Shown: piece after piece, positions 43,548 to 57,863 of the stretch | How positions within the stretch are numbered: the stretch's first letter is position 1 | How the letters are laid out: each line of letters opens with the position of its first letter | Assembly (NCBI GenBank): GCA_947571135.1 | Contig: CANOWY010000005.1 | Coordinates: forward strand, 479-64,478 | Reading direction: 5' to 3' | Length of the DNA stretch: 64,000 bases | Source of the DNA: an uncultured Mycoplasmatota bacterium | Lineage (GTDB): Bacteria; Bacillota_I; Bacilli_A; RF39; UBA660 | The notes under the pieces: model-generated | What the model saw: the letters and a program-made list of their open reading frames with translations, nothing else | Told to the model about the DNA's origin: nothing | Database searches by the model: none | Translations under genes and position numbers: made by a program

Positions 43548-43624
43548 GGCGGAATTGGTGAAGTGGTTAACACGCCGGATTGTGGCTCCGGTATGCATGG
43601 GTTCGATCCCCATATTTCGCCCCA
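43548..43624 (+). tRNA. tRNA-His (GTG) with G-1 and encoded CCA
   Basis: Extra 5' G pairing with discriminator C, anticodon loop TTGTGGC, T-arm ATGGGTTCGATCCCCAT. Confidence 0.85.
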
Positions 43625-43723
43625 TATTGAATTTTACGCACACCTTTGTGCGAGAGATTAGTAAAAGTTCGTAATACTTGATATTATGGACTTTTTTCTT
43701 TGCAAAGGTGGTGAGTATATATA

Positions 43724-44023
43724 ATGAATGTGTCCATAGAAATTTTAGAATTTCCTTTGTGTATAAAAAATAAGATATTAAGAATTAAAAATATTACCAA
43801 ACTAAATATAGAATATGTTGCAGGAAAGAATATCGTCTTTAATAACTCTAATTTAGGATTAAATGAACCACATAAGATTATCATTAGTAATAATACCCAA
43901 GGTATAGTTCTACTTTGTTATTATAATGATTCAAATCTATATAATGAAGATTTATCAGATACTATTACAATAACTGAACTAACTAAAATTATAAATACAT
44001 TGTTAGAAGAAATATCAAATTAA
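43724..44023 (+). CDS. Hypothetical protein
   Basis: 99-aa ORF only. Confidence 0.25.
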   Translation: MNVSIEILEFPLCIKNKILRIKNITKLNIEYVAGKNIVFNNSNLGLNEPHKIIISNNTQGIVLLCYYNDSNLYNEDLSDTITITELTKIINTLLEEISN

Positions 44024-44053
44024 TGGTATAATTGTCATAAGGAGTGATTATTT

Positions 44054-44398
44054 ATGAGAAATCATGATATGAGATTAAATGAAGAACCTTTTGATATGAT
44101 TGCAAATGATATTAAAGATATTGAATATAGGTTAAATGATGAAAAGCGTAAACAAATACAAATTGGGGATACAATTACTTTTTATAAGCGACCATTAGAG
44201 AAAGAGATAATCAAAGTATTAGTAACTGATTTAAAATATTATAAAACTTTATTGGAAATGTATTCTGCTACTTTTGAAAAAGATTTTAAAGATAGATATG
44301 ATAGTCCACAAGCTGTTGTAGATGATACACCATACTATACAAATGAAGAAGTAGAAAAATATGGATGTGTAGCAATCTACTTTAAAAAAATTAGATAA
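44054..44398 (+). CDS. ASCH/PUA-like domain protein
   Basis: EPFDMIANDIKDIEYRLNDEKRKQIQIGDTITF pattern. Confidence 0.45.
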   Translation: MRNHDMRLNEEPFDMIANDIKDIEYRLNDEKRKQIQIGDTITFYKRPLEKEIIKVLVTDLKYYKTLLEMYSATFEKDFKDRYDSPQAVVDDTPYYTNEEVEKYGCVAIYFKKIR

Positions 44399-44545
44399 TA
44401 GTGCTGTTTTTAAACTATTAAACAAAAAAATTAAAATTTGTTTTTTTCCTTTATTCATAAGGGGTAAATAGTTATTTTTAGATATAATTTTCAAATTGTG
44501 TGTGCGATTAAGATAGAAGTGTGACAAAGGAGAAAAAATCGCACA

Positions 44546-45585
44546 GTGTAGGTTTGTCAAACCCAACCAACAAAATTTTTGGAAAGGATTGATAAACTGT
44601 GAGTAAATCAAAAATTACTCAGCAAATGAGATACCGAGAGTCTCTCATTAAATACGCCGATCAACATGGCGTATCAAAAGCGTCTCGTGTTTATAACACA
44701 AATAGACAATATATCTATCGTTGGAAGAATCGATACGATGGTAATATTCGTTCTCTGGAAAATAAGAGTAAAAGACCGAAAAGTCATCCGAATCAACATA
44801 CCCAAGATGAGATAAAACTCATCAAAGATATGTTTAAGAAAAATAAGGATACAGGTTTAGTTGTTCTTTGGGTGAAATTAAAACAAAAAGGATATACAAG
44901 AAGTTGTTCTTCTCTGTATCATCAATTAAAAAAACTAGAACTTAAATTTAATACCCCAAAGAAAAAGAAGAAACGAAAGTCTAAACCTTATGTACAGATG
45001 ACTTTTCCTGGAGAACGAATACAGATAGATGTGAAAACCGTTCCTACAAGATGTATAGTAGGTCAGTTCAAATTGTACCAATATACAGCAATCGACGAAT
45101 TCAGTCGGGTTCGTTATCTAAAAATTTATGGAGAAAAATCTACTTATACTTCTTACAAATTCTTGCAAGAAGTCATAAAAAGATTTCCTTTTAAAATTTA
45201 TACGATAAGAACAGATAATGGTCCTGAATTCACCAAAAGATTGCTAAGTAAAGATCCAAATGATAAGACAATATTTGAACATGGCCTAGAAAAAGCAGGT
45301 ATCCATCATGACATCATTAAACCTTACACCCCTAAACACAATGGTAAGGTAGAACGAAGTCATAGAAAGGATAATGAACGTTTTTATTTGTCTCATCGCT
45401 TTTATTCCTTAGAAGATGCCAATAAACAGTTGCAAGTTTATTTAAATCAATATAATAATTTTCCCATGCAACCTTTAAATTGGAAATCTCCTAAGGAATG
45501 GCTTCGTGATTATTTTAATAACTTAAAATAATCTTATCGTTGGTTTGTCGTTACCTTTGTAACTTTTGTTTGACAAACCTACATT
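44546..45585 (+). mobile_element. IS481-like insertion sequence with perfect 16-bp terminal inverted repeats TGTAGGTTTGTCAAAC
   Basis: IRL 44546-44561, IRR 45570-45585 (exact reverse complement); single DDE transposase inside. Confidence 0.75.
44599..45531 (+). CDS. DDE transposase (rve integrase-core, IS481-like)
   Basis: N-terminal HTH, TDNGPEF and PYTPKHNGKVERSHR motifs. Confidence 0.85.
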   Translation: MSKSKITQQMRYRESLIKYADQHGVSKASRVYNTNRQYIYRWKNRYDGNIRSLENKSKRPKSHPNQHTQDEIKLIKDMFKKNKDTGLVVLWVKLKQKGYTRSCSSLYHQLKKLELKFNTPKKKKKRKSKPYVQMTFPGERIQIDVKTVPTRCIVGQFKLYQYTAIDEFSRVRYLKIYGEKSTYTSYKFLQEVIKRFPFKIYTIRTDNGPEFTKRLLSKDPNDKTIFEHGLEKAGIHHDIIKPYTPKHNGKVERSHRKDNERFYLSHRFYSLEDANKQLQVYLNQYNNFPMQPLNWKSPKEWLRDYFNNLK

Positions 45586-45743
45586 TTTAGATATAATTTT
45601 CAAATTGTGTCCGTTGCATGTCCTAAAAAAATGTGGTATTATGGTAATATACGAAAATTCTAGATAATCGTATATTTGAATTATTTTGAAGTTCTTAACA
45701 CAAGGGAAATTCTTCCTTGTTTTTTTGTCGTTAAAAATTATAG

Positions 45744-47495
<1,752 letters not shown>

Positions 47496-47530
47496 ATATA
47501 GTATAATTATATTAGATGTAAAACTGATAA

Positions 47531-48094
47531 ATGAAAGGAGAATTTATGGATAATAATTTAAATTTTGAACAAATAGAAGAAAATAAAGATTTAATTGCTG
47601 AAATTACTTATAATTGTATAAAAAGCGTATTTTCTAAAGAAGATCAAAAGAATATTTTAGTCGCTGAAATAGATCCAAAATATATGGATGGTATTAAATT
47701 ATGTGAGCATTACAATATTGATACAAAAACCGGTGCTAATTGTTTAGTGTGTGAATGCAAGAGAGGAGAAAATAAAAGTTATGTCGCCCTTCTTGTACCA
47801 ACTGGATATAAGTATAATATGTCATCTACAGTTAGAAAATATACAAATTCACGAATGGTATCAGTCGCTCCATTAGAATATGTTTTAGAAAAAACTAAAA
47901 TGGAATATGGTAGTATAAATCCTATTGGATTACCTCAAGAATGGAAGATTTTTATTGATCCTAAGGTAATGGAAGTAGATAGAATTATTTGTGGAAGTGG
48001 ATTACAAAAGTCAAAAATTTCATTGCCAAGTAAATATTTATTAAAGTTAAATAATGTAGAAATTTTAGAAAATTTAGCAAAGGAGGTAGATTAA
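47531..48094 (+). CDS. YbaK/ProX-like aminoacyl-tRNA deacylase domain protein
   Basis: GSINPIGLP and overall YbaK-like pattern. Confidence 0.55.
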   Translation: MKGEFMDNNLNFEQIEENKDLIAEITYNCIKSVFSKEDQKNILVAEIDPKYMDGIKLCEHYNIDTKTGANCLVCECKRGENKSYVALLVPTGYKYNMSSTVRKYTNSRMVSVAPLEYVLEKTKMEYGSINPIGLPQEWKIFIDPKVMEVDRIICGSGLQKSKISLPSKYLLKLNNVEILENLAKEVD

Positions 48095-49467
48095 TGAAAA
48101 ACACTTTAGAATATTTTGAAGAAATTATGAAGATTCCAAGAGAATCTGGAAAAGAAGATAAAATAGCTGCTTATTTAGTCAATTACGCCAAAGAAAATAA
48201 TATTGAATATAGTTTGGGAAAGTATAATACAGTGTTTCTAAAGAAGAATAATAATTCTGATAAAACAATTATTTTACAAGCACATTCAGATATGGTTTGT
48301 GTGTCAACAGATGATTATGATTTTGATAACAAAGGAGTACCTTTTTATATTGAAGATGATTATTATAAATCAAAGAATACTTCGCTAGGAGCAGATGATG
48401 GGATTGGAATTGCAATTATTCTTGCAGTTCTACAAGAAAATGAAAATATGCCAAATATTGAAGTAATGATCACTACACAAGAAGAAACAACTATGCTAGG
48501 TGCTAGTAACTTTGATTATTCTTTATTAACTGGTAAAACTTTAATTAGTTTGGATGGTATAAAAGAAGCAGATATTGAGTCTTCAAGTGCAGGTATGTGC
48601 TCTATGACATTAAATAAAAAAATAAATTATGAAACTGAAAATTGTAATGTTTATAAACTATCAATAAGTGGTTTAAAGGGTGGACATTCTGGAGATGATA
48701 TTGATAAAAATAGATGTAATGCAATAAAGTTGGCTATAAAATTATTAAATGAATTAGATTATAAAGAAATAGCGGATATTCAATTTGGTAAACGTGATAA
48801 TGTAATACCAAGTGAAGGTTATGTTATATTTACTTCTAATGAAAATATAGAATTATTACAGAAAAAACTAGATGACATTGAATTAGATTTAAGTGAAGAA
48901 GATTCTAATATAATATTAAATTTAGAAAAAAGTGAATCAACAAAATTTATCAAAGAAAGTAAAGATATAATTCAGTTTGTATCTAAAATAAAAGATGGTT
49001 TATTAGAAACTTATCAAGATGACAATTTCCCTTTATTATCAGCAAATATTGGTAAAATATCTATTTTAAATGATATTCTAGAAATAAAATATAGTATTAG
49101 AAGTTCTGATTTATCAAAAGAGGAAATGTTACTAAATGAAGTAAAATTACTTGCTAATCAATATGCATTTGAGATGATTATTGATGCAAAAAAACCATTT
49201 TTTCCATTTAAAGAAAATTCAATGATAAGAAAAATTTTAGCTGATAATTATAAAAAATTGTATGGAAAAGAAACGATTGTTAAAAAAGTTCATGCTTGTA
49301 TGGAGGGTGGAATTTTATCAAATAATATTGCTGATTTAGATATATGTACAATTGCTCCTTCTATAGATAATTGTCATTCAATCAATGAGCGTGTAAGTAT
49401 ATCTTCTACCAAAAGAGTATACGATTGGTTAAAAGAAACCTTAATTGAATATAATAAAATCAAATAG
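48094..49467 (+). CDS. pepD: M20-family Xaa-His dipeptidase (PepD-like)
   Basis: HSDMV and GADDGIGIA metal-binding motifs, TQEETTMLGA. Confidence 0.75.
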   Translation: MKNTLEYFEEIMKIPRESGKEDKIAAYLVNYAKENNIEYSLGKYNTVFLKKNNNSDKTIILQAHSDMVCVSTDDYDFDNKGVPFYIEDDYYKSKNTSLGADDGIGIAIILAVLQENENMPNIEVMITTQEETTMLGASNFDYSLLTGKTLISLDGIKEADIESSSAGMCSMTLNKKINYETENCNVYKLSISGLKGGHSGDDIDKNRCNAIKLAIKLLNELDYKEIADIQFGKRDNVIPSEGYVIFTSNENIELLQKKLDDIELDLSEEDSNIILNLEKSESTKFIKESKDIIQFVSKIKDGLLETYQDDNFPLLSANIGKISILNDILEIKYSIRSSDLSKEEMLLNEVKLLANQYAFEMIIDAKKPFFPFKENSMIRKILADNYKKLYGKETIVKKVHACMEGGILSNNIADLDICTIAPSIDNCHSINERVSISSTKRVYDWLKETLIEYNKIK

Positions 49468-49856
49468 TTAAAAAATTTAAATATCATAATAATTTGAGCG
49501 AGAAATCGCTCTTTTTTGTTGTCTAAATTTAGAAAGGAGATGAGTTTTATTAATTATTTCTTTGAAATAGTCGTGCCACAATTATTAGAGTATTTTAAAC
49601 AAAATGCAAAGGATGTTCCTTATTCTTTGCTATTTGAAGTATTAATTAATAATAAGAACTATGAAAAAGAAGTAAAAGAAATGATTGAAAAATCTAATGA
49701 AATTAGTAAAAAATATGAAGAAAAAAAGTAAACTGTCGGAGACTATATTAGTAGGTCTTAGGGATATTCCCTAACAAGTAGATGGGTGTGTATACACCAT
49801 GCTTGATATATTGAATTTTTATATTACGTTACCCGTTCCCTACTTTTTGAAAGGAG

Positions 49857-50411
49857 ATGTATATGAATCAAGAATGGATAGATAGAAAAGATGTTCAAAA
49901 GATGTTTTCATTAACAACAAAACAATTTGGAAGAGTTATGAGAAATATAAAACGAAGACACGAACATGATTATCATTTATGGATAAGAAGAGATAAATAT
50001 AAGAAAACACAAATGTATATAAGTAAAGAATGTGTTGATTGGTTAAAAGAAGTTTATTTTAACAAAGAAGACCATTACTTAACTTCTGAAATAAGATTTT
50101 ATAAAAAGAAGATTTTTTATTTAGAAAATGAATTAGGAATAGATCATAAAAGAAAAAAATATCAATCTTTTTCATTAAGATTTTTGCCTTACTTGTTTGG
50201 TAAAAGTATAAGTGCTATTCATGTAGCACTTCATAGGATGAAAAAAGTATTTCCCTATCCTATAACTTTTGAAGATGATGGCGTTATATGTGTAAAGGAA
50301 GAAGGAGTTAGATGGTTGTATGAAAATTATTTTAAGAGAGATTATTTAAAAGAATTAGAAGAATATAAATGGGAATTAGAAATTAGAAAAAATATAATAG
50401 TTAGAAATTAG
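49857..50411 (+). CDS. Hypothetical protein with internal duplication
   Basis: Repeated ISKECVDWLKEVYFNKEDHY / VKEEGVRWLYENYFKRDY modules. Confidence 0.4.
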   Translation: MYMNQEWIDRKDVQKMFSLTTKQFGRVMRNIKRRHEHDYHLWIRRDKYKKTQMYISKECVDWLKEVYFNKEDHYLTSEIRFYKKKIFYLENELGIDHKRKKYQSFSLRFLPYLFGKSISAIHVALHRMKKVFPYPITFEDDGVICVKEEGVRWLYENYFKRDYLKELEEYKWELEIRKNIIVRN

Positions 50412-50477
50412 TAAAATTTTTAATAACTACTTTGATAAATAATCTTTTTGCAGTATAATATTCTTAGGAGGTAAGCT

Positions 50478-50672
50478 ATGGAAATGAAAGAAATAATAAC
50501 ATTTATCTGTACTATATTATCTGCTTTATTTGCGGGAGCGAGTTTTACTTTTTATAAAAAAAATTTAAAGATAAGTGGAGATTATAAAGAAACAAAAAAT
50601 AAATATAAGAATATAAATCAACAATCTGGTAAAGATGGAAAAAATATTATTGGGGATAATAACAAATTTTAG
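50478..50672 (+). CDS. Small single-TM protein
   Basis: N-terminal TM ITFICTILSALFAGASFTFY; RBS AGGAGG. Confidence 0.4.
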   Translation: MEMKEIITFICTILSALFAGASFTFYKKNLKISGDYKETKNKYKNINQQSGKDGKNIIGDNNKF

Positions 50673-50683
50673 GGGGAATTGTA

Positions 50684-51208
50684 GTGGGAGATGCAGTAAA
50701 ACAAATAACTGGTGATGGTGGAATAAATATTGATGGAAATAATAATACTCTTAATTTATATAAGCAACCTATAAAATATGATTTATTATCTAAACTATGT
50801 AAAGATTTAATAGATAGTGATTTAAACTTCAATGAAGATATGAATATAAATGAGTTACCAGTAGAATTGCTAGAAAAAATAGAATATAACCATTTAACTG
50901 CTCATAAAGAATTATATGAGGAATTTGGAATGTATTTTTTAGATATAGATGGAGTAGTAAAAAAATCTTTGGGTGATAATTCTATAAAATTAGTTCGAAT
51001 TATTAAAACTTTATATCTTGAAATTTTGGCTAATGACCCTAATCAAACTGCGGATCAAATATTGTTTAATATTGAAAATAAATTAATGAATTATACAAGT
51101 TTAATTGATTCAACAGAATATTTAAATGAAGATGTTAGATATTCTATAAGTCAAATTGTATTGTATGTTTTTGAAAAATGTCAGATTCTAAAAAAACCAA
51201 AAAAATAA
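50684..51208 (+). CDS. Hypothetical protein (candidate effector/partner of downstream ABC ATPase)
   Basis: GTG start with RBS GGGGGAA. Confidence 0.35.
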   Translation: MGDAVKQITGDGGINIDGNNNTLNLYKQPIKYDLLSKLCKDLIDSDLNFNEDMNINELPVELLEKIEYNHLTAHKELYEEFGMYFLDIDGVVKKSLGDNSIKLVRIIKTLYLEILANDPNQTADQILFNIENKLMNYTSLIDSTEYLNEDVRYSISQIVLYVFEKCQILKKPKK

Positions 51209-51224
51209 AAAGAAAGGTGGAAGT

Positions 51225-51452
51225 GTGATGCAACTAATTAATAAGAATATTAGTCCAGATAAGACAATATATTATATATCAGTTATTATATATAAAGAAT
51301 TAAAGGAAGCCACCTACTCTGTAAAAAAATTATATGAAAATTTGGAAGAAAAAAGCGAAGATATTGATTACAGCAGTTATCTGTATGCTTTAAACTTTTT
51401 ATATTTAATAGAAAAAATTACTTTAGACAAGGATGTGATTAAATTATGTTAA
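51225..51452 (+). CDS. Small helical protein (candidate middle component)
   Basis: RBS AAAGGTGG; 7-nt overlap with downstream ATPase. Confidence 0.4.
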   Translation: MMQLINKNISPDKTIYYISVIIYKELKEATYSVKKLYENLEEKSEDIDYSSYLYALNFLYLIEKITLDKDVIKLC

Positions 51453-53128
51453 TTGAAAGATTAGTTATTAAGGAATCATTTCCAAGTGAAAGTATAATAC
51501 GTGATATAAAATTTAATTTGGATGGTTTAAATTTAATTGTAGATGAAGGAAATAGAAAAAGAGGAAATGGAGTTGGCAAAACAACTTTTTTAAGACTAAT
51601 AGATATTGCCTTTGGCGCTAAAGATCGTAAAGCATTATATGTTGATCCAGAAACATCTTCCATAAATGAGAAGTTAAAAAATTATATTGAAACATCTAAG
51701 GTATTCATAGAGTTATCAATAATTAATCAATCGACAAATATAAAAACATTGTTGATGGTAGAATTATTTCCAAGCGGAATTAGAAAAATTAATAATGAGA
51801 AATATAATTATAATGAATACAAAGAAAAATTAAATGAAATTGTTTTTGGAAATGCAGATAAGGTTCCAACCTTTCGTAATCTCATTGGTAAATTTATCAG
51901 AGTAAATATGAATGGCGATAATAATAGTTTCTTATATTTTAATAGCGATCATTGCTCAAATGCAGAATATCAAAATATCTATAACTATCTTTTTAAATTT
52001 AAAAATTCAGAGATTGAAAACATTATTTTATCTTTGAGAGAAAAAATTTCTGATTTAGAAAAACAATATAAAATGGTAAAAACAAGTTTAAAATATGATA
52101 GTATAGGTCAAATTGATGCAAAAATAAACATTATTGAAACTAAAGTGAAGGAATTAGAAAATAAACAAAAAACGTATATTGATGAGAAAATTGTTTTAGA
52201 TGAAAAAAAGATAATGGAGAATAGAAAAGAATATTCCTTATTAAATCGTGAATGTGAAAAATTATTATTTGATATTAAAATATTAGAAGATAATATAAAA
52301 AAAGAATCATCTACTCGACAAAATATTGATGAAAAAGCTTTAAAGAATTTCTATGATGATGTTCAATTAAATATTTCTGCTTTAAGCAAAACATTTGCAG
52401 AATTAGTTGCTTTTAATAATCAATTGAACCAAAATCAGATAGATACTTATAATAAAATGCTAAAGGCTAAAAAACAAAAGTTAGATGAAATTAATATAAA
52501 AAAAGACAGATTTTATAATGATAACAAAGGTTATATGTTTTTGGTTGAAAATGGTAGTTTAGAGGAATATCTTAATTTACAAGAAAATTTAAGCAATTAT
52601 CAAACCGGATTAGGTGAATGCTATAATGCTAGAGATATATATGATGATTATGATCGAAAAATTTCTAATGCTCAGATAGAACTAAATGAGCAAGTAGAAA
52701 AAAATAAAATTAATCAAGTTGATGAAAATTTAAATAAATTTAATACAATATTTACAAACTTTTCAAAGAAAACTGTAGATGCAGAATATTTCTTGTATTA
52801 TAATGAATCTGGATTTCCTTTATCAATTTCAAATGTAGATGGAAGCTTTAGTACAGGAACAAGAAAGACTGCTATTATAGCGTTTGATTTAGCGTATTTA
52901 AAATATTCAAGAGATTTAAAAATTAAGTGCCCTAAATTTGTTATTCATGATGTTTTAGAAAACATCCATCAAAATGATTTTTATCAAACTATTGATCTTA
53001 TTAAAAATCAAAAATTTCAATATATTGCTGCTATTTTAAAACAAAGTATTGATATGCACGATAATATCGATAAAGATAAAGATATTATTTTAACTCTTTC
53101 AGAAGATGAAAAACTTTTTCTAATTTAA
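51446..53128 (+). CDS. SMC/Rad50-like ABC ATPase with central coiled coil (DUF2326/Lamassu LmuB/ABC-3C-like)
   Basis: N-terminal Walker A GNGVGKTTFLRLIDIAFG, long coiled coil, C-terminal Walker B/D-loop AIIAFDLAYL and H-loop FVIHDVLENIH. Confidence 0.65.
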   Translation: MLIERLVIKESFPSESIIRDIKFNLDGLNLIVDEGNRKRGNGVGKTTFLRLIDIAFGAKDRKALYVDPETSSINEKLKNYIETSKVFIELSIINQSTNIKTLLMVELFPSGIRKINNEKYNYNEYKEKLNEIVFGNADKVPTFRNLIGKFIRVNMNGDNNSFLYFNSDHCSNAEYQNIYNYLFKFKNSEIENIILSLREKISDLEKQYKMVKTSLKYDSIGQIDAKINIIETKVKELENKQKTYIDEKIVLDEKKIMENRKEYSLLNRECEKLLFDIKILEDNIKKESSTRQNIDEKALKNFYDDVQLNISALSKTFAELVAFNNQLNQNQIDTYNKMLKAKKQKLDEINIKKDRFYNDNKGYMFLVENGSLEEYLNLQENLSNYQTGLGECYNARDIYDDYDRKISNAQIELNEQVEKNKINQVDENLNKFNTIFTNFSKKTVDAEYFLYYNESGFPLSISNVDGSFSTGTRKTAIIAFDLAYLKYSRDLKIKCPKFVIHDVLENIHQNDFYQTIDLIKNQKFQYIAAILKQSIDMHDNIDKDKDIILTLSEDEKLFLI

Positions 53129-53337
53129 TATATATGAATTCTATTTTAATTGATAAAATTTACTTCTTGCACAAATGGATATATAAGTGCTATAATTAAT
53201 TCATCAAGTATTAATTAAATACTTTTACTACTTGGGTGCAAAACTCGTTTACTTATTGCCCCATAATTTTGATTAAAACATAAAAAATGTGTTTTAATAT
53301 ATAAGTTTATAAAGTTTTTTATATGTGTGTGGAAACC

Positions 53338-53652
53338 TTAAATAAACTTATTTGTAAATGGAATACGGAAACGTGTTCTTTTTTCTTGATGTAAATAAGT
53401 ATCTAAAGTCATTGAAATACGACTATGACCCATACTTCTAGATACATAATCAATAGGCATTTTTTCGTGTATCATACGTGTTGCGTAACTATGCCTAAAT
53501 TCATGTTGCGTTATTTCGTATATATTAGCCTTTTCACACGCTTTTTTCTTGTGGCGGTCAATTGTACTGCTAGCAAGTGGTTTTATACCACCAAATACGA
53601 AATAATCACTTTTAAATACACGATATTGTTTTGTATAATATTTTAATTTCCA
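53338..53652 (-). pseudogene. Tyrosine recombinase/integrase C-terminal fragment
   Basis: minus-strand frame encodes HEFRHSYATRMIHEKMPIDYVSRSMGHSRISMTLDTYLH (R-H-R-Y catalytic region) with no N-terminal domain. Confidence 0.6.
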
Positions 53653-54356: not shown

Positions 54357-55571
54357 ATGGAATTAAAAGATAAGTTGAAAATTCTTGCAGATAGCGCTAA
54401 ATATGACGCTTCTTGTTCTTCTAGTGGAAGTACAAGGAAAAATAAAAGTGGTTTTGGTAATGTTGCTTTTTCTGGAATTTGTCATTCTTTTGCTTCAGAT
54501 GGAAGATGTATTTCTCTTTTAAAAATTCTTATGACTAATTGTTGTATTTTTGATTGTAAATACTGTTTGAATCGAAAAAGTAATGATATACAAAGGGCAA
54601 TTTTTACTCCTGAAGAAGTGTGTCAAATCACAATGAATTTTTACAGAAGAAATTATATAGAAGGATTATTTTTAAGTTCGGGGATAATAAAAAGTCCTGA
54701 TTATACAATGGAACTTTTAATTCAAACCATTTCTCTTTTACGTAAAAAGTATCATTTTGGGGGATATATTCATGCAAAAGCCATTCCAGGAGCAAGTGAA
54801 AAATTATTAAAAGATTTAGGACTTTTGGTGGATAGGTTGAGTGCTAATGTAGAATTGCCTACCGAAAATGGTTTAAAACTTTTAGCACCAAATAAAAAAG
54901 AAAGTAATGTTTCTAAAATCATGCATTATGTAAATACAAATCAATCTAAAAAATATGTACCTGCTGGACAGAGTACGCAAATGATTATTGGAGCAACCAA
55001 AGAAAGTGATTTAGAAATTATGGAAAAGAGTGCAAATCTATATAGCAACTACCAATTAAAAAGAGTTTTTTATTCTGCTTATATTCCAGTAAATCAAGAT
55101 TCTTTACTTCCTACTTTAGAACATCCTCCCTTAAAGAGAGAAAATCGTCTTTATCAAGCCGACTGGTTGCTTCGTTTTTATAATTTTAAAGTGAAAGACT
55201 TATTAGATGAGAAGAATCCTAATTTTAATATTTTAATTGATCCCAAAGCCGATTGGGCTTTACGCCATTTGAATGAATTTCCAAAAGAAATTAGTAAATG
55301 CTCTTATTATGATTTATTAAAAATTCCTGGTATTGGTGTAAAATCTGCTAAAAGAATTTTATCTTCTCGTCGTGTGTTTAAAATTTCTTTTGAGGACTTA
55401 AAAAAAATGGGTGTTGTTTTAAAAAGAGCCAAGTATTTCATAACTTGCAATGGAAAATATTTTATGAATTACGCTTTTTTTCAAAAGGAATTTATTGAGA
55501 GAAATTTAGTATTAGAAGAAAAAATACCTTTAAATAAAATACATGAACAATTGAGGTTTTTTAATGAATAA
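54357..55571 (+). CDS. Radical-SAM protein with C-terminal helix-hairpin-helix (putative DNA modification/repair rSAM, TIGR03916-like)
   Basis: CIFDCKYC (Cx3Cx2C) cluster, C-terminal LLKIPGIGVKSAKRIL HhH. Confidence 0.8.
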   Translation: MELKDKLKILADSAKYDASCSSSGSTRKNKSGFGNVAFSGICHSFASDGRCISLLKILMTNCCIFDCKYCLNRKSNDIQRAIFTPEEVCQITMNFYRRNYIEGLFLSSGIIKSPDYTMELLIQTISLLRKKYHFGGYIHAKAIPGASEKLLKDLGLLVDRLSANVELPTENGLKLLAPNKKESNVSKIMHYVNTNQSKKYVPAGQSTQMIIGATKESDLEIMEKSANLYSNYQLKRVFYSAYIPVNQDSLLPTLEHPPLKRENRLYQADWLLRFYNFKVKDLLDEKNPNFNILIDPKADWALRHLNEFPKEISKCSYYDLLKIPGIGVKSAKRILSSRRVFKISFEDLKKMGVVLKRAKYFITCNGKYFMNYAFFQKEFIERNLVLEEKIPLNKIHEQLRFFNE

Positions 55572-56313
55572 TGGTTGTTTTATTTATGAGGATACTTTTG
55601 TACATCTTTTGAATTTGATTTTTTATTTAATTCAAAATCATCTAAAGCCCGAGAACATTAAAAATACGATGTATACTCCTAATTTACTCGATCATGTCAT
55701 TGTTTTAAAGATAGAAAAGAATCCAGAAATTATTAGTAAAATTATCACAAGTATGGGCAGTTTTACGTTTCGATCTATTTATTATGTTTTTTTATCCGAT
55801 GTTGATAACAAAGAACTTATTATTTATTATTTGCTTTTAAATGGAGTGAAGTACAAGGAAAAAGTTTTATACCATCGTAATTTAAAGTGTGTTGAAAAAA
55901 CAATAAATATTTCACGTTATGTCCTTCATGAAGTACATAAATATAAAGGATTTCTACGTTTTAAAGAATTAGAAAATCATATTTTATATGCGGAAATAGA
56001 ACCAGAAAATGATATTTTATTTATGGTTTCTCATCATTTTCAAAGAAGACTAAAAAATGAATATTGGATTATTAAAGATGTCAAAAGAAAAATAGTAAGT
56101 ATTTATGATAAGAAAAAATATTATTTAGTTTCAGAGGAAAATTTTAGTTTAGAAACAACAAAATTAAGCCAAAAGGAGATAGAAATGGGAGAGTTGTGGA
56201 AAACTTTTTACAAAACGATTGGGATTAAGGAAAGAAAAAATGACCGTTGTCGAATGAATTTTATGCCGAAGAAATATTGGAAATATATGGTTGAAATGGA
56301 GGATATTTTATGA
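55564..56313 (+). CDS. DUF4130/TIGR03915-like partner of DNA-modification radical-SAM protein
   Basis: 8-nt overlap with rSAM gene; size and composition typical of the conserved partner. Confidence 0.6.
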   Translation: MNNGCFIYEDTFVHLLNLIFYLIQNHLKPENIKNTMYTPNLLDHVIVLKIEKNPEIISKIITSMGSFTFRSIYYVFLSDVDNKELIIYYLLLNGVKYKEKVLYHRNLKCVEKTINISRYVLHEVHKYKGFLRFKELENHILYAEIEPENDILFMVSHHFQRRLKNEYWIIKDVKRKIVSIYDKKKYYLVSEENFSLETTKLSQKEIEMGELWKTFYKTIGIKERKNDRCRMNFMPKKYWKYMVEMEDIL

Positions 56314-57863
56314 AAAAAGTAGTAAGTGGCAAAGAATTACGAGAAAAAATGAAGGAAAGTATAAATTATTTATGTGATATTGTTAGTAATACTTTAGGAC
56401 CAAAAGGAAGTAATGTGATTATTGATCATTCTCTATTTAGTCCTTTTATTACAAACGATGGAGCGACTATTGCGAAAAATATAGAAAGTGAAGATGAAGT
56501 GGTCAATACCATTTTGGAAATTGCAAAAGAAGCCTCTTTAAAAACAAATGTAATTGTTGGAGATGGAACTACAACCACTTTAGTTCTTTTAGAGAGTATT
56601 TTTAATTCAAGTTTGCAATCTATAGAAGATGGGAAGAATCCTATGGTTTTGAAAAGGGAATTAGATGTTTGTTTAGATTTTGTTTTAAAAAATTTAGAGA
56701 AAGAAAAAAGAATACCCAATAAAGAGGATTTTTTCCGTATTGCTTCCATTGCTGCCAATGATGAAAATTTGGGAAAATTAGCGAGTGAGGCTTTTTTAGT
56801 TGTCAAAAATAAAAATGCTATTACCATAGAAGAAATAGAAGAAAATAAATTGAATATTCAGTTTATTAACGGATATAACATTGATACGCAACTTGCAAGT
56901 GATTATTTTTTAAAAGAACAGAAGAGTATAAATTTTTTGCAAGCGAGTGTTTTGATTATTCATGATTATATGAATAGTTTAGAAAATATTGGCTTTGTTT
57001 TAAATGATTGTATGCAAACAAAGAAAAGTTTAATCATTTTTGCAAATGAATATGACGAAAATGTTATAAGAGAAATTGTTTCATTAACTTTGGAGGGTGA
57101 ACTGCATTGTTGTGTTTTAAAATTATCTGAATATGGTATGCACCAAAGAAAGTTAGAAAAAGATTTAGAAGTTCTTACTCATGCAAAAATTATTGAAAAT
57201 TACGAGTATATAACACCAGAAAATATTGGTTTTGCTAAAAATATTTTGGTTACTAATGATTCTGTTCGATTGGATTTTATAAAAGATAGTAATATAAAAA
57301 AATATATATCTTTATTAGAAAGCGAAAGTAAAGAATGTAAAGAGGAATATGAAAAAAATTTTTATCAAAAAAGATTGGCTATGTTTCAGACAGGTCTTGC
57401 AAAAATTGAAATAGGAGCCCCAACGAAAACGGAATGTCATGAAAAGAAAATGCGTTTGGAAGACGCTCTTTGTGCTTTAGAAAGTTGTAAACAGGGGGTT
57501 ATTTTGGGAGGTGGAGTAACACTTTTAAAAATTGCTTCTGACTTAGAAGAACAGTCGGACGTTTCTGGTATTTTTAAAAATGCTTTGAAAGAACCTTTTG
57601 CTAAAATCCTAAGTAATGCAGGTCTTGATTTTTCTTCTATTCAAGAAGATATAAAACAAGCAAATTATCAAAAAATATATAATGTAAAAAAGGAACAATT
57701 AGAAGACATTCAAGATACTTTTGTTTTGGATTCTTTAAAGGTAGTTGCCTCTTCTTTAATAAATGCAACTTCTATTGCTACCATGCTTCTTACTACGACA
57801 AGTTTAGTTATTAATGAATATCAAAATAACATGAGTAAATCAAATGAATATACAGAGATTTAA
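56310..57863 (+). CDS. Divergent GroEL/Cpn60-family chaperonin-like ATPase (no GGM tail)
   Basis: TLGPKGSNVI, ITNDGATIAK, GDGTTTTLVL, RLEDALCAL, VILGGGVTLL match GroEL equatorial/ATP motifs; ATG overlaps upstream stop (ATGA). Confidence 0.8.
   Translation: MKKVVSGKELREKMKESINYLCDIVSNTLGPKGSNVIIDHSLFSPFITNDGATIAKNIESEDEVVNTILEIAKEASLKTNVIVGDGTTTTLVLLESIFNSSLQSIEDGKNPMVLKRELDVCLDFVLKNLEKEKRIPNKEDFFRIASIAANDENLGKLASEAFLVVKNKNAITIEEIEENKLNIQFINGYNIDTQLASDYFLKEQKSINFLQASVLIIHDYMNSLENIGFVLNDCMQTKKSLIIFANEYDENVIREIVSLTLEGELHCCVLKLSEYGMHQRKLEKDLEVLTHAKIIENYEYITPENIGFAKNILVTNDSVRLDFIKDSNIKKYISLLESESKECKEEYEKNFYQKRLAMFQTGLAKIEIGAPTKTECHEKKMRLEDALCALESCKQGVILGGGVTLLKIASDLEEQSDVSGIFKNALKEPFAKILSNAGLDFSSIQEDIKQANYQKIYNVKKEQLEDIQDTFVLDSLKVVASSLINATSIATMLLTTTSLVINEYQNNMSKSNEYTEI

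Follow-up and report, generated by a model that had tools for sequence, protein, structure and literature searches.

Genes of the Locus

The window analyzed here is a stretch of 64,000 nucleotides (nt) from an uncultured Mycoplasmatota bacterium (contig CANOWY010000005.1), and our subject is a cluster of four genes on its + strand, which encode, in order, a small membrane protein, an LmuA-like adaptor, a middle component of the ABC-three component (ABC-3C) type, and an SMC/Rad50-like ABC ATPase; the first two of these proteins carry the same short sequence motif. An earlier reading made from the letters alone (the sequence-only reading) had predicted four open reading frames (ORFs) on one strand, with an overlap of 7 nt between the last two, and all of these are present on the + strand at the positions it gave. 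The first gene (50478..50672) encodes a single-pass membrane protein of 64 amino acids (aa), the proposed effector, which belongs to a family of homologous transmembrane (TM) proteins encoded at 40 of 41 unique short-form loci (defined below). The second (50684..51208) begins with GTG and encodes the adaptor, a protein of 174 aa without an enzymatic domain, as judged by a Pfam CTD10 match, a family alignment, profile searches, and an AlphaFold2 model. The third (51228..51452) encodes the LmuC-like ABC-3C middle component MC6 (Pfam PF20293), and the fourth (51446..53128) encodes a 560 aa ATPase of the DUF2326/YydD type, which resembles short LmuB proteins by Pfam family, PADLOC, and Foldseek.

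A promoter-like site (TTGATA, a spacer of 16 nt, and TATAAT; 50432..50459, + strand) lies in the intergenic region before the small membrane protein gene and matches the consensus at 11 of 12 positions. The overall number of promoter-like sites in the region is not above chance, and this site, which is intergenic, is one of the two best; by its consensus match only, it is likely the operon promoter. An AGGAGG ribosome binding site (RBS) is located between this site and the small membrane protein gene. The ORF of the middle gene opens at a GTG codon (51225; 75 aa to 51452), and the protein most likely starts at the ATG at 51228, yielding 74 aa: this is the start used by public gene calls, and the RBS AAGGTGGA is situated in front of it. 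The middle gene and the ATPase gene share positions 51446-51452.

Assignment of the ATPase and the Middle Component

The middle protein is a member of Pfam PF20293 (ABC-3C MC6; E 4.5e-15, 55.8 bits against a cutoff of 27.2), and its gene lies between the effector-side gene and the ATPase gene, as in Lamassu/ABC-3C systems. The ATPase belongs to PF10088 (DUF2326) and matches the PADLOC model for LmuB at 1e-7 over residues 1-527 (full length), with no equivalog match in NCBIfam. Because a sequence search of the ATPase against PDB returned only a spurious coiled-coil match (E 0.98), a structure-based search was needed. In the AlphaFold2 model (pLDDT 84.5), the head is split into an N- and a C-terminal half by a coiled coil formed by long helices at residues ∼188-444, in agreement with the long central coiled coil of the sequence-only reading. 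The closest structure found by Foldseek is Bacillus subtilis YydD (9a6c_A, E 1.6e-19), followed by LmuB of the solved Lamassu complexes (9hqu_A, 2.9e-12; 9hqx_B; 9nyg_B), and then by Rad50 and SMC heads. The case that had been named against a defense-type ATPase, a housekeeping RecN or SbcC, fails, as RecN (4ad8) appears only at rank 48 (E 1.3e-5) and the locus lies in a mobile island; so does the case that the neighboring small ORFs are not conserved with the ATPase, since they accompany it down to ∼30% ATPase identity and in two phyla.

Walker A of the ATPase lies at residues 40-47, near the N-terminus as in the sequence-only reading; with R39 included, its letters are RGNGVGKT, and the family pattern is xGNxxGKTT. 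N41, K45, and T47 are invariant, and R39 replaces the first canonical Gly. A signature-like S-T-G is found at residues 469-471. Two further motif assignments had to be revised on the basis of the AlphaFold2 model: the segment AIIAFDLAYL, previously taken as Walker B and D-loop, sits inside a helix (470-490) that follows the signature-like S-T-G471, and the segment HDVLENIH, previously taken as the H-loop, is the Walker B and D-loop region. Walker B is instead FVIHD, consisting of a strand at 498-501 (FVIH) and the invariant D502, as indicated by the model and the alignment, and E505, three residues past D502, is invariant as well. The ATPase has no CxxC zinc hook.

Reviews unite ABC-3C and Lamassu as one superfamily, in which LmuA corresponds to the effector plus C-terminal domain (CTD), LmuC to the middle component (MC), and LmuB to the SMC-like ATPase, and the assignment to a Lamassu/ABC-3C family holds for this reason. 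The evidence supports the four genes as a member of this family, in the subfamily CTD10-MC6 with a short LmuB of the DUF2326 type. The cluster had been described beforehand as Lamassu/ABC-3C-like, with a non-enzymatic and possibly membrane-targeting effector, and this description is supported by the MC6, CTD10, and DUF2326/LmuB matches.

An Adaptor Without an Enzymatic Domain

The adaptor consists of a disordered, G/N-rich stretch (residues 1-28) followed by an all-helical CTD10 domain (∼30-174); the AlphaFold2 model has a pLDDT of 70, with values below 50 for residues 1-28. Residues 46-170 align with the Pfam ABC-3C CTD10 profile at 26.7 bits, below the cutoff of 28.1, and the aligned relatives of the adaptor, which carry the NCBI name 'ABC-three component system protein', score over the cutoff (31.6-46 bits). 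With a profile of the adaptor family (alignment A3, 25 members), a protein 99% identical to the window adaptor is matched at E 1.7e-35. In the same alignment K65, N69, C166, and L169 are invariant. In the N-terminal stretch, G10 and G18 are invariant as well. An enzymatic N-terminal domain (such as a nuclease, Sir2, protease, or lipase) is lacking: the ∼28 disordered residues at this end have no domain match in Pfam, NCBIfam, or PADLOC, and the adaptor has no significant match in PADLOC.

These properties are common to the family. An exhaustive search with the adaptor profile yielded 664 representative clusters at 50% identity (245 of them at E <= 1e-10); among the best 150 of the 664, nearly all proteins are 170-210 aa long, and none has a TM or enzymatic N-terminus, bar rare HNH forms. 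G, N, D, S, T, and Q together make up half or more of the first 30 residues in 110 of the 140 full-length family members.

A Small Membrane Protein Encoded Upstream of the Adaptor

The 64 aa protein comprises Glu2, a Ser/Ala-striped hydrophobic helix, a basic linker, and a C-terminal G/N-rich motif. There is one hydrophobic helix (∼residues 6-26), which bears out the single TM segment of the sequence-only reading, and there is no helical bundle: the protein is helix, linker, and motif only. It has no match in Pfam, NCBIfam, or PADLOC. The small TM proteins from related loci form one homologous family, with the consensus ME..l.iLSIIASilSII, in which 17 of 22 members have Asp or Glu at position 2 and conservation of G59 exceeds 90%. 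The Bell, HeLo, MLKL, and RPW8 cell-death domains have been reported to share an acidic residue at position 2 or 3 of an N-terminal hydrophobic helix. Across the family, the segment in front of the helix has a net charge of -0.6 and the segment behind it one of +2.4, which indicates a cytoplasmic C-terminal tail (N-out/C-in topology).

The distribution of this gene was assessed in a scan for relatives (one genome per species, using a 12-sequence alignment, A2), which returned 80 loci from Bacillota, Actinomycetota (Collinsella, Lancefieldella, Bifidobacterium, and Arthrobacter), Bacteroidota, and Proteus; together with contigs fetched earlier, 83 loci have both the MC and the CTD10 protein. 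The four-gene layout is kept at 78%, 46%, and 33% ATPase identity. Of the 41 unique loci that encode a short CTD10 protein (171-220 aa), 40, from Bacillota and Actinomycetota, have an ORF of 52-86 aa with one N-terminal TM helix directly upstream. At all three loci of the HNH form (Proteus, Tenacibaculum, and Arenibacter), where the CTD10 protein is 274-276 aa long, the TM gene is absent, and the N-terminus of the short adaptor occupies the position that the HNH nuclease has in these sister systems. The sole exception among the short-form loci is L065 (Candidatus Dwaynia gallinarum; 1284-2049), in which the upstream ORF of 60 aa encodes an amphipathic N-terminal helix, MLKKIWNFIKSIF, and no TM helix; its tail, VQNINVGG, still matches the N-terminus of its partner, TQNINIGT.

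Two further observations concern the TM gene. The locus of Schleiferilactobacillus perolens (L057:4951-6972) looks decayed, with the adaptor split in two (82 + 106 aa) and the ATPase cut to 333 aa, and the TM gene is intact there. At several Bacillales loci (L021:4630-4938, L022:4608-4964, and L023:4492-4941) an XRE-type helix-turn-helix gene is located directly upstream of the TM gene on the same strand, and may encode a dedicated repressor of the operon.

A Motif Shared by the Membrane Protein and the Adaptor

The C-terminal tail of the TM protein and the adaptor N-terminus have the same short motif within each locus, but its sequence changes from one locus to the next. The sequence-only reading lacked this feature, which we consider the most informative of the locus. 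In the window, the motif comprises residues 46-62 of the TM protein (INQQSGKDGKNIIGDNN; 50613..50663, + strand) and residues 5-21 of the adaptor (VKQITGDGGINIDGNNN; 50696..50746, + strand); in the alignment of the two copies, the invariant adaptor residues G10 and G18 fall opposite G51 and G59 of the TM protein. Other loci carry other versions, given here as tail and adaptor N-terminus: RGNIQSKGSNSINNTGNNN and RGNIESTGLNSVNNTGNGN in L024, SQTATGKVATNVVGSNNS and SQSAIGKVATNITGDSNS in L026, and, as a pair that is not G/N-rich, DEFNIKQVETFDN and DIFNIEKIDKFFN in L079.

The pairing was evaluated on 22 lineage representatives (ATPase identity <60%), with alignments set up as in Dyrka et al. (BLOSUM62, gaps 14/4). 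The mean score was 50.8 for partners from the same locus, compared with 27.5 for partners from different loci and 24.3 for shuffled tails, and none of 100,000 permutations of partners reached the observed sum of scores (z = 12). The true partner was ranked first for 13 of the 22 TM proteins and for 15 of the 22 adaptors. By the criterion of Dyrka et al. (2020) for pairs of the amyloid signaling motifs termed BASS (aligned length >= 15 aa and score >= 40), 14 of the 22 lineage pairs qualify, with scores of up to 82. The motif is thus shared by, and is co-evolving between, the TM protein and the adaptor. Recent gene conversion was considered as a cause of the likeness and rejected: codons are identical at 109 of 211 matching motif residues, compared with 105.7 expected from codon usage (p = 0.35), which is no excess.

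With the motif found on both sides of a junction between two ORFs that are 11 nt apart and in different frames, one may ask whether the 64 aa and 174 aa ORFs are a single gene (TM segment, repeat, and CTD10), split by mutation or error or else frameshifted, with the motif as a tandem repeat. This is barely credible. The stop codon between them is real, and an AGGGGGA Shine-Dalgarno sequence precedes the GTG of the 174 aa gene by 7 nt; all of the relatives inspected likewise have two separate genes. At 40 of 40 unique loci the split is kept, and each gene has its own start and RBS; the spacing between the genes is -35 to +21 nt, and the frame varies. Identical copies of the split occur in at least 22 independent contigs. 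No fused version was found among 140 full-length representatives, and the motif copies have no excess codon identity. After translation of the junction in three frames and inspection of the 40 unique loci, the single-gene explanation was rejected, and we treat the two ORFs as separate partners.

The composition of the motif regions (20-21% N and 11-13% G; rich in Q, S, and T; poor in L, P, and E) corresponds to an enrichment of 2.7-2.9x for N, 3.5-4.1x for G, and 1.7-2.6x for Q; for L and P the corresponding values are 0.06-0.43x and 0-0.41x, there is no shift in V and I, and the tail side shows no depletion of K. Reported BASS motifs are ∼25 aa long, enriched in N, G, and Q (and V/I), and depleted in P and L, and the composition found here is similar. 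A more ordinary account would have the motif pair act as a one-to-one beta-strand zipper within a stable complex of the four proteins, with no templating, in which case the TM protein could still be the effector, for instance through release or rearrangement. The motifs are indeed short (17 aa in the window and 10-14 aa in some lineages), lineage-specific co-variation is expected of any specific interface, and AlphaFold2 models the isolated motif without structure. We nevertheless regard the zipper as rather unlikely: the N/G/Q-rich and L/P-poor composition, a repeat number that varies, and a position at the effector C-terminus and the sensor N-terminus all match amyloid signaling motifs, and the partners have one sequence in common instead of two complementary ones, which speaks for homotypic stacking in register.

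Proposed Mechanism

Lamassu systems are present in roughly 10-15% of prokaryotic genomes, and their effectors have been catalogued as enzymes fused to LmuA. In the two solved systems, the CTD of LmuA is an oligomerization domain that is sequestered by LmuB2-LmuC, and the sensing of DNA ends frees LmuA to form an active tetramer. In the resting state the N-terminal effector touches no other part of the complex, which accounts for the free exchange of effectors. The locus in the window suggests, from its sequence, that the effector has not been lost but has moved to a separate membrane protein of ∼60 aa, which shares a sequence tag with the adaptor that would keep the two in register. Our preferred reading, which we consider rather probable, is that the locus is a four-gene Lamassu/ABC-3C abortive-infection system with the TM protein as its effector, engaged via the motif shared with the adaptor.

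By analogy with the solved Lamassu complexes, a dimer of the ATPase together with MC6 would keep the CTD10 domain of the adaptor sequestered. Once the complex senses DNA that is aberrant or of phage origin (for example, DNA ends or replication intermediates), the adaptor would be released and would oligomerize via its CTD, again as in Lamassu. The oligomers would gather the G/N-rich N-terminal motifs, which would pair with the motif on the cytoplasmic TM-protein tail or act as a template for it; the direction of the signal, from adaptor to membrane protein, as well as the mode of pairing and its amyloid character, we infer from analogy. The Ser/Ala-striped TM helices may then cluster and damage the membrane, so that the infected cell is killed or arrested, an outcome and a defense function modeled on Bab/Agp, HET-S/NWD2, and Bell/NLR. 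In its most specific form the proposal concerns a large Lamassu/ABC-3C clade, probably Clade O (see below), in which a domain-less LmuA templates a cross-beta fold onto a 'mini-Bell' membrane protein and thereby causes cell death; this form is tentative, and we would lean somewhat against it.

The TM protein could, alternatively, be a membrane anchor that permanently tethers the adaptor, and with it the ATPase complex, on the inner membrane face, for example for the surveillance of DNA where it is injected, with growth arrest originating elsewhere (for example in the SMC-like complex clamping DNA, in adaptor oligomers, or in a host factor). Its topology is that of a conventional N-out/C-in single-pass protein with no regulatory globular domain, so it is probably always in the membrane, and the shared motif demonstrates pairing, not the direction of a signal. 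We give an anchor only a small chance, however, as it would leave no component with toxic or nucleolytic activity, whereas every characterized Lamassu has an effector module. Moreover, the motif sits exactly at the position of the HNH nuclease of the sister systems, which argues for the replacement of one effector by another, and the amphipathic helix encoded at L065 would make a poor static anchor.

Several points weigh against the TM protein as an effector engaged through the motif. The structural similarity between CTD10 and the CTD of LmuA is not significant (the best match is YydB, at E 1.3; LmuA is at rank 3, with a probability of 0.11), so the mechanism of sequestration and oligomerization rests on the family classification. 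In the ATPase, the residue after the Walker B Asp is Val (Lys in some relatives) and not Q, S, T, or E; Walker B of short LmuB has been reported as hhhhD[Q/S/T/E], and its Walker A as Gx4GK[S/T]. A globular Bell or HeLo domain is missing from the TM protein, in which no homology to such a domain was detected (Pfam HeLo, HeLo-like, and SesA); the protein may be in the membrane permanently, which would leave its harmlessness before activation unexplained. The motif pair of the window itself, at 17 aa, scores 39, slightly below the threshold of 40, and whether the motif would form amyloid is a question that its sequence does not decide. Our literature searches yielded no experimental anti-phage or anti-plasmid data for this clade. 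Lastly, Krishnan et al. (2020), the paper in which CTD10 and MC6 were defined, may already describe this architecture.

Comparison With Known Systems

Short Lamassu/ABC-3C systems, such as DdmABC of Vibrio cholerae and LmuACB of Salmonella (Cap4-CTD7-MC3), have the same gene order as the window (effector-side gene, middle component, ATPase), a Pfam-defined MC and CTD, and a mobile or defense context. The window ATPase, like that of Vc-Cap4, is short (∼560-600 aa); its coiled coil is folded and lacks a zinc hook. The logic of sensing and activation is probably the same by analogy, with a CTD that is sequestered, freed, and oligomerized. Unlike these systems, the window encodes an LmuA-like protein without an enzymatic N-terminus and, as a fourth gene, a single-pass membrane protein; the TM tail and the adaptor N-terminus share a co-evolving motif; and in the window clade V or K comes after Walker B, and the E three residues on is conserved. 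Haudiquet et al. describe a 'Clade O' of short Lamassu, in which the effector domain of LmuA is "seemingly lost", and offer no explanation; a membrane protein is not mentioned in their text. The clade described here is probably Clade O. Another candidate relative, the Lamassu of the lactococcal plasmidome, was rejected because it is a standard long Cap4 system.

The direct sister architecture is that of the HNH-CTD10/MC6/DUF2326 systems (PADLOC PDC-M68), found, for example, in Proteus columbae (L088), Tenacibaculum (L092), and Arenibacter (L093), which have the same CTD10, MC6, and ATPase families. They differ from the window in having three genes, with an effector of 274-276 aa that carries the N-terminal HNH nuclease, and no small TM gene; the window ATPase does not reach the PADLOC model PDC-M68B. 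The closest ATPase structure, by comparison, is that of YydB-YydC-YydD from B. subtilis (integrative model 9a6c), with the same DUF2326 family and a three-component layout. We take YydB to be a large enzymatic effector (chain of 481 aa), and this system is not known to have a TM partner or a shared motif.

On the side of the output, the locus resembles Bab/Agp of Escherichia coli ECOR25 (BASS11), the Bell/NLR pairs (BASS1-10), and the fungal HET-S/NWD2, which are likewise encoded by adjacent collinear genes. As in Bab/Agp and Bell/NLR, the motif is at the C-terminus of the effector and at the N-terminus on the sensor side. Bab/Agp is an amyloid-signaling abortive-infection system, demonstrated by experiments with peptides and cells, which acts by membrane alteration and is abolished by beta-breakers on either side; membrane damage and abortive infection would be the outcome in the window as well. 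In contrast to Bell/NLR and Bab/Agp, the sensor side here is the adaptor of an SMC-like ABC ATPase, and not an NLR or a TPR-GreAB-PIN protein, and the effector, unlike Bell or 'Babybell' effectors, has no helical bundle and is essentially a TM helix with a tail. The hosts of the window clade are mostly unicellular Bacillota and Coriobacteriia, where Bell/NLR pairs have been reported as rare or absent.

The MC6, CTD10, and DUF2326 families, the Lamassu framework, and the existence of an "effector-less" clade are already known. The conserved small membrane gene, the motif shared with the adaptor, and the implied, possibly amyloid-like, output based on this motif are unreported in the literature that was searched, which did not include the paper defining ABC-3C. 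In this literature, amyloid signaling is not combined with Lamassu, ABC-3C, DUF2326, or CTD10 in any paper, and Lamassu papers that name transmembrane proteins do so in other contexts. If the proposal is true, it would explain apparently incomplete Lamassu systems and add a membrane-targeting output to Lamassu; it would also provide a compact, testable case of motif-based, and possibly amyloid, signal transfer in bacterial immunity, whose many natural motif variants could serve as orthogonal pairs. Were the amyloid-like version to be correct, this would be the second bacterial immune system with amyloid signaling and the first coupled to an SMC-like DNA sensor, and such signaling would extend to unicellular gut Bacillota and Coriobacteriia. 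For annotation, there is a gap in that the PADLOC defense models miss both the adaptor and the TM protein.

The Integrative Island and Its Surroundings

Homology to other copies of the island extends from the 3′ end of a tRNA-His gene (43549..43624, + strand), which is the left junction, to positions 53264-53270, and the system is therefore cargo at the distal end of an integrative island of ∼9.7 kb. The right end, TTATTGCCCCAT (53253..53264, + strand), repeats the GCCCCAT of the tRNA-His 3′ end. A large serine recombinase of 578 aa (45759..47495, + strand; Resolvase and Recombinase domains in Pfam) is encoded upstream of the operon with cargo genes in between, and the cargo region of a serine recombinase was correctly recognized at this place by the sequence-only reading. 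Identical blocks, consisting of an ORF of 182/184 aa followed by the genes for 64, 174, 74, and 560 aa, occur on at least 22 contigs behind the same 578 aa recombinase, and the downstream flanks of the island copies differ. Part of the cargo is swappable, with a tRNA_edit protein and an M20 peptidase here and in L003, and a 210 aa protein and a Ham1p-like NTP pyrophosphatase in L001 and L002. The source belongs to a low-GC lineage of gut Bacilli. A 100% match was found in the mouse-gut metagenome-assembled genome MGBC156923, and the 78% relative is "Mycoplasma sp. CAG:776".

Given its location on a mobile island next to a recombinase, the cluster could be a module for maintenance or addiction of the island, or for DNA handling (segregation or the exclusion of competing elements), and have no immune function; SMC-like ATPases also serve in DNA maintenance. 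This is very unlikely, since the four-gene block is found in many unrelated contexts that lack this island, including beside AbiE (L009) and in integrase/prophage-like regions (L015). In addition, its families were defined as components of conflict systems, the HNH sister is the PADLOC phage-defense candidate PDC-M68, and anti-plasmid activity is already a known function of Lamassu.

Directly upstream of the operon is an ORF of 184 aa (49857-50411) without a family match. It is kept in the close relatives L009 and L017 at ∼80% nucleotide identity (it is split in L017) and is absent from distant loci. As a fifth component of the system this ORF was rejected: it occurs only in close relatives, so it is treated as island cargo, and it may encode a regulator of the island or a DNA-binding protein.

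The island (43549-53264) has GCCCCAT at both junctions and the serine recombinase close to its left end. Serine-recombinase islands in tRNA genes are less usual than those of tyrosine integrases. Relative to other copies of the island, the segment 44013-45582 is an insertion that contains an ORF with an ASCH domain (44054-44398) and an insertion sequence (IS) with a transposase of the rve family (310 aa; 44599-45531). This IS has imperfect terminal inverted repeats of 37 nt (44538-44574 and 45556-45592) and is flanked by a perfect direct repeat of 28 nt (44474-44501 and 45583-45610). Immediately outside the right end of the island, on the - strand (53338-53475), the C-terminal end of a tyrosine (phage-type) integrase survives as a remnant of 45 aa (Pfam Phage_integrase, positions 140-170), which points to an earlier element at this site, now decayed.

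In the 78%-identical relative (L009:9676-11198), an AbiEi/AbiEii toxin-antitoxin pair and a LigD primase-polymerase gene are located immediately downstream of the system, a neighborhood that is consistent with the setting of a defense island. Beyond the right end of the island in the window, at 54357-57863, are three genes with overlapping starts and stops, which encode a radical-SAM protein with a helix-hairpin-helix (404 aa), a DUF4130 protein (249 aa), and a chaperonin of the Cpn60_TCP1 family (517 aa). It is unusual for a bacterium to have a chaperonin gene of the TCP-1/thermosome type in linkage with a putative DNA-repair pair. The pair of DUF4130 and chaperonin genes is also found beside the related system in L009 and L010.

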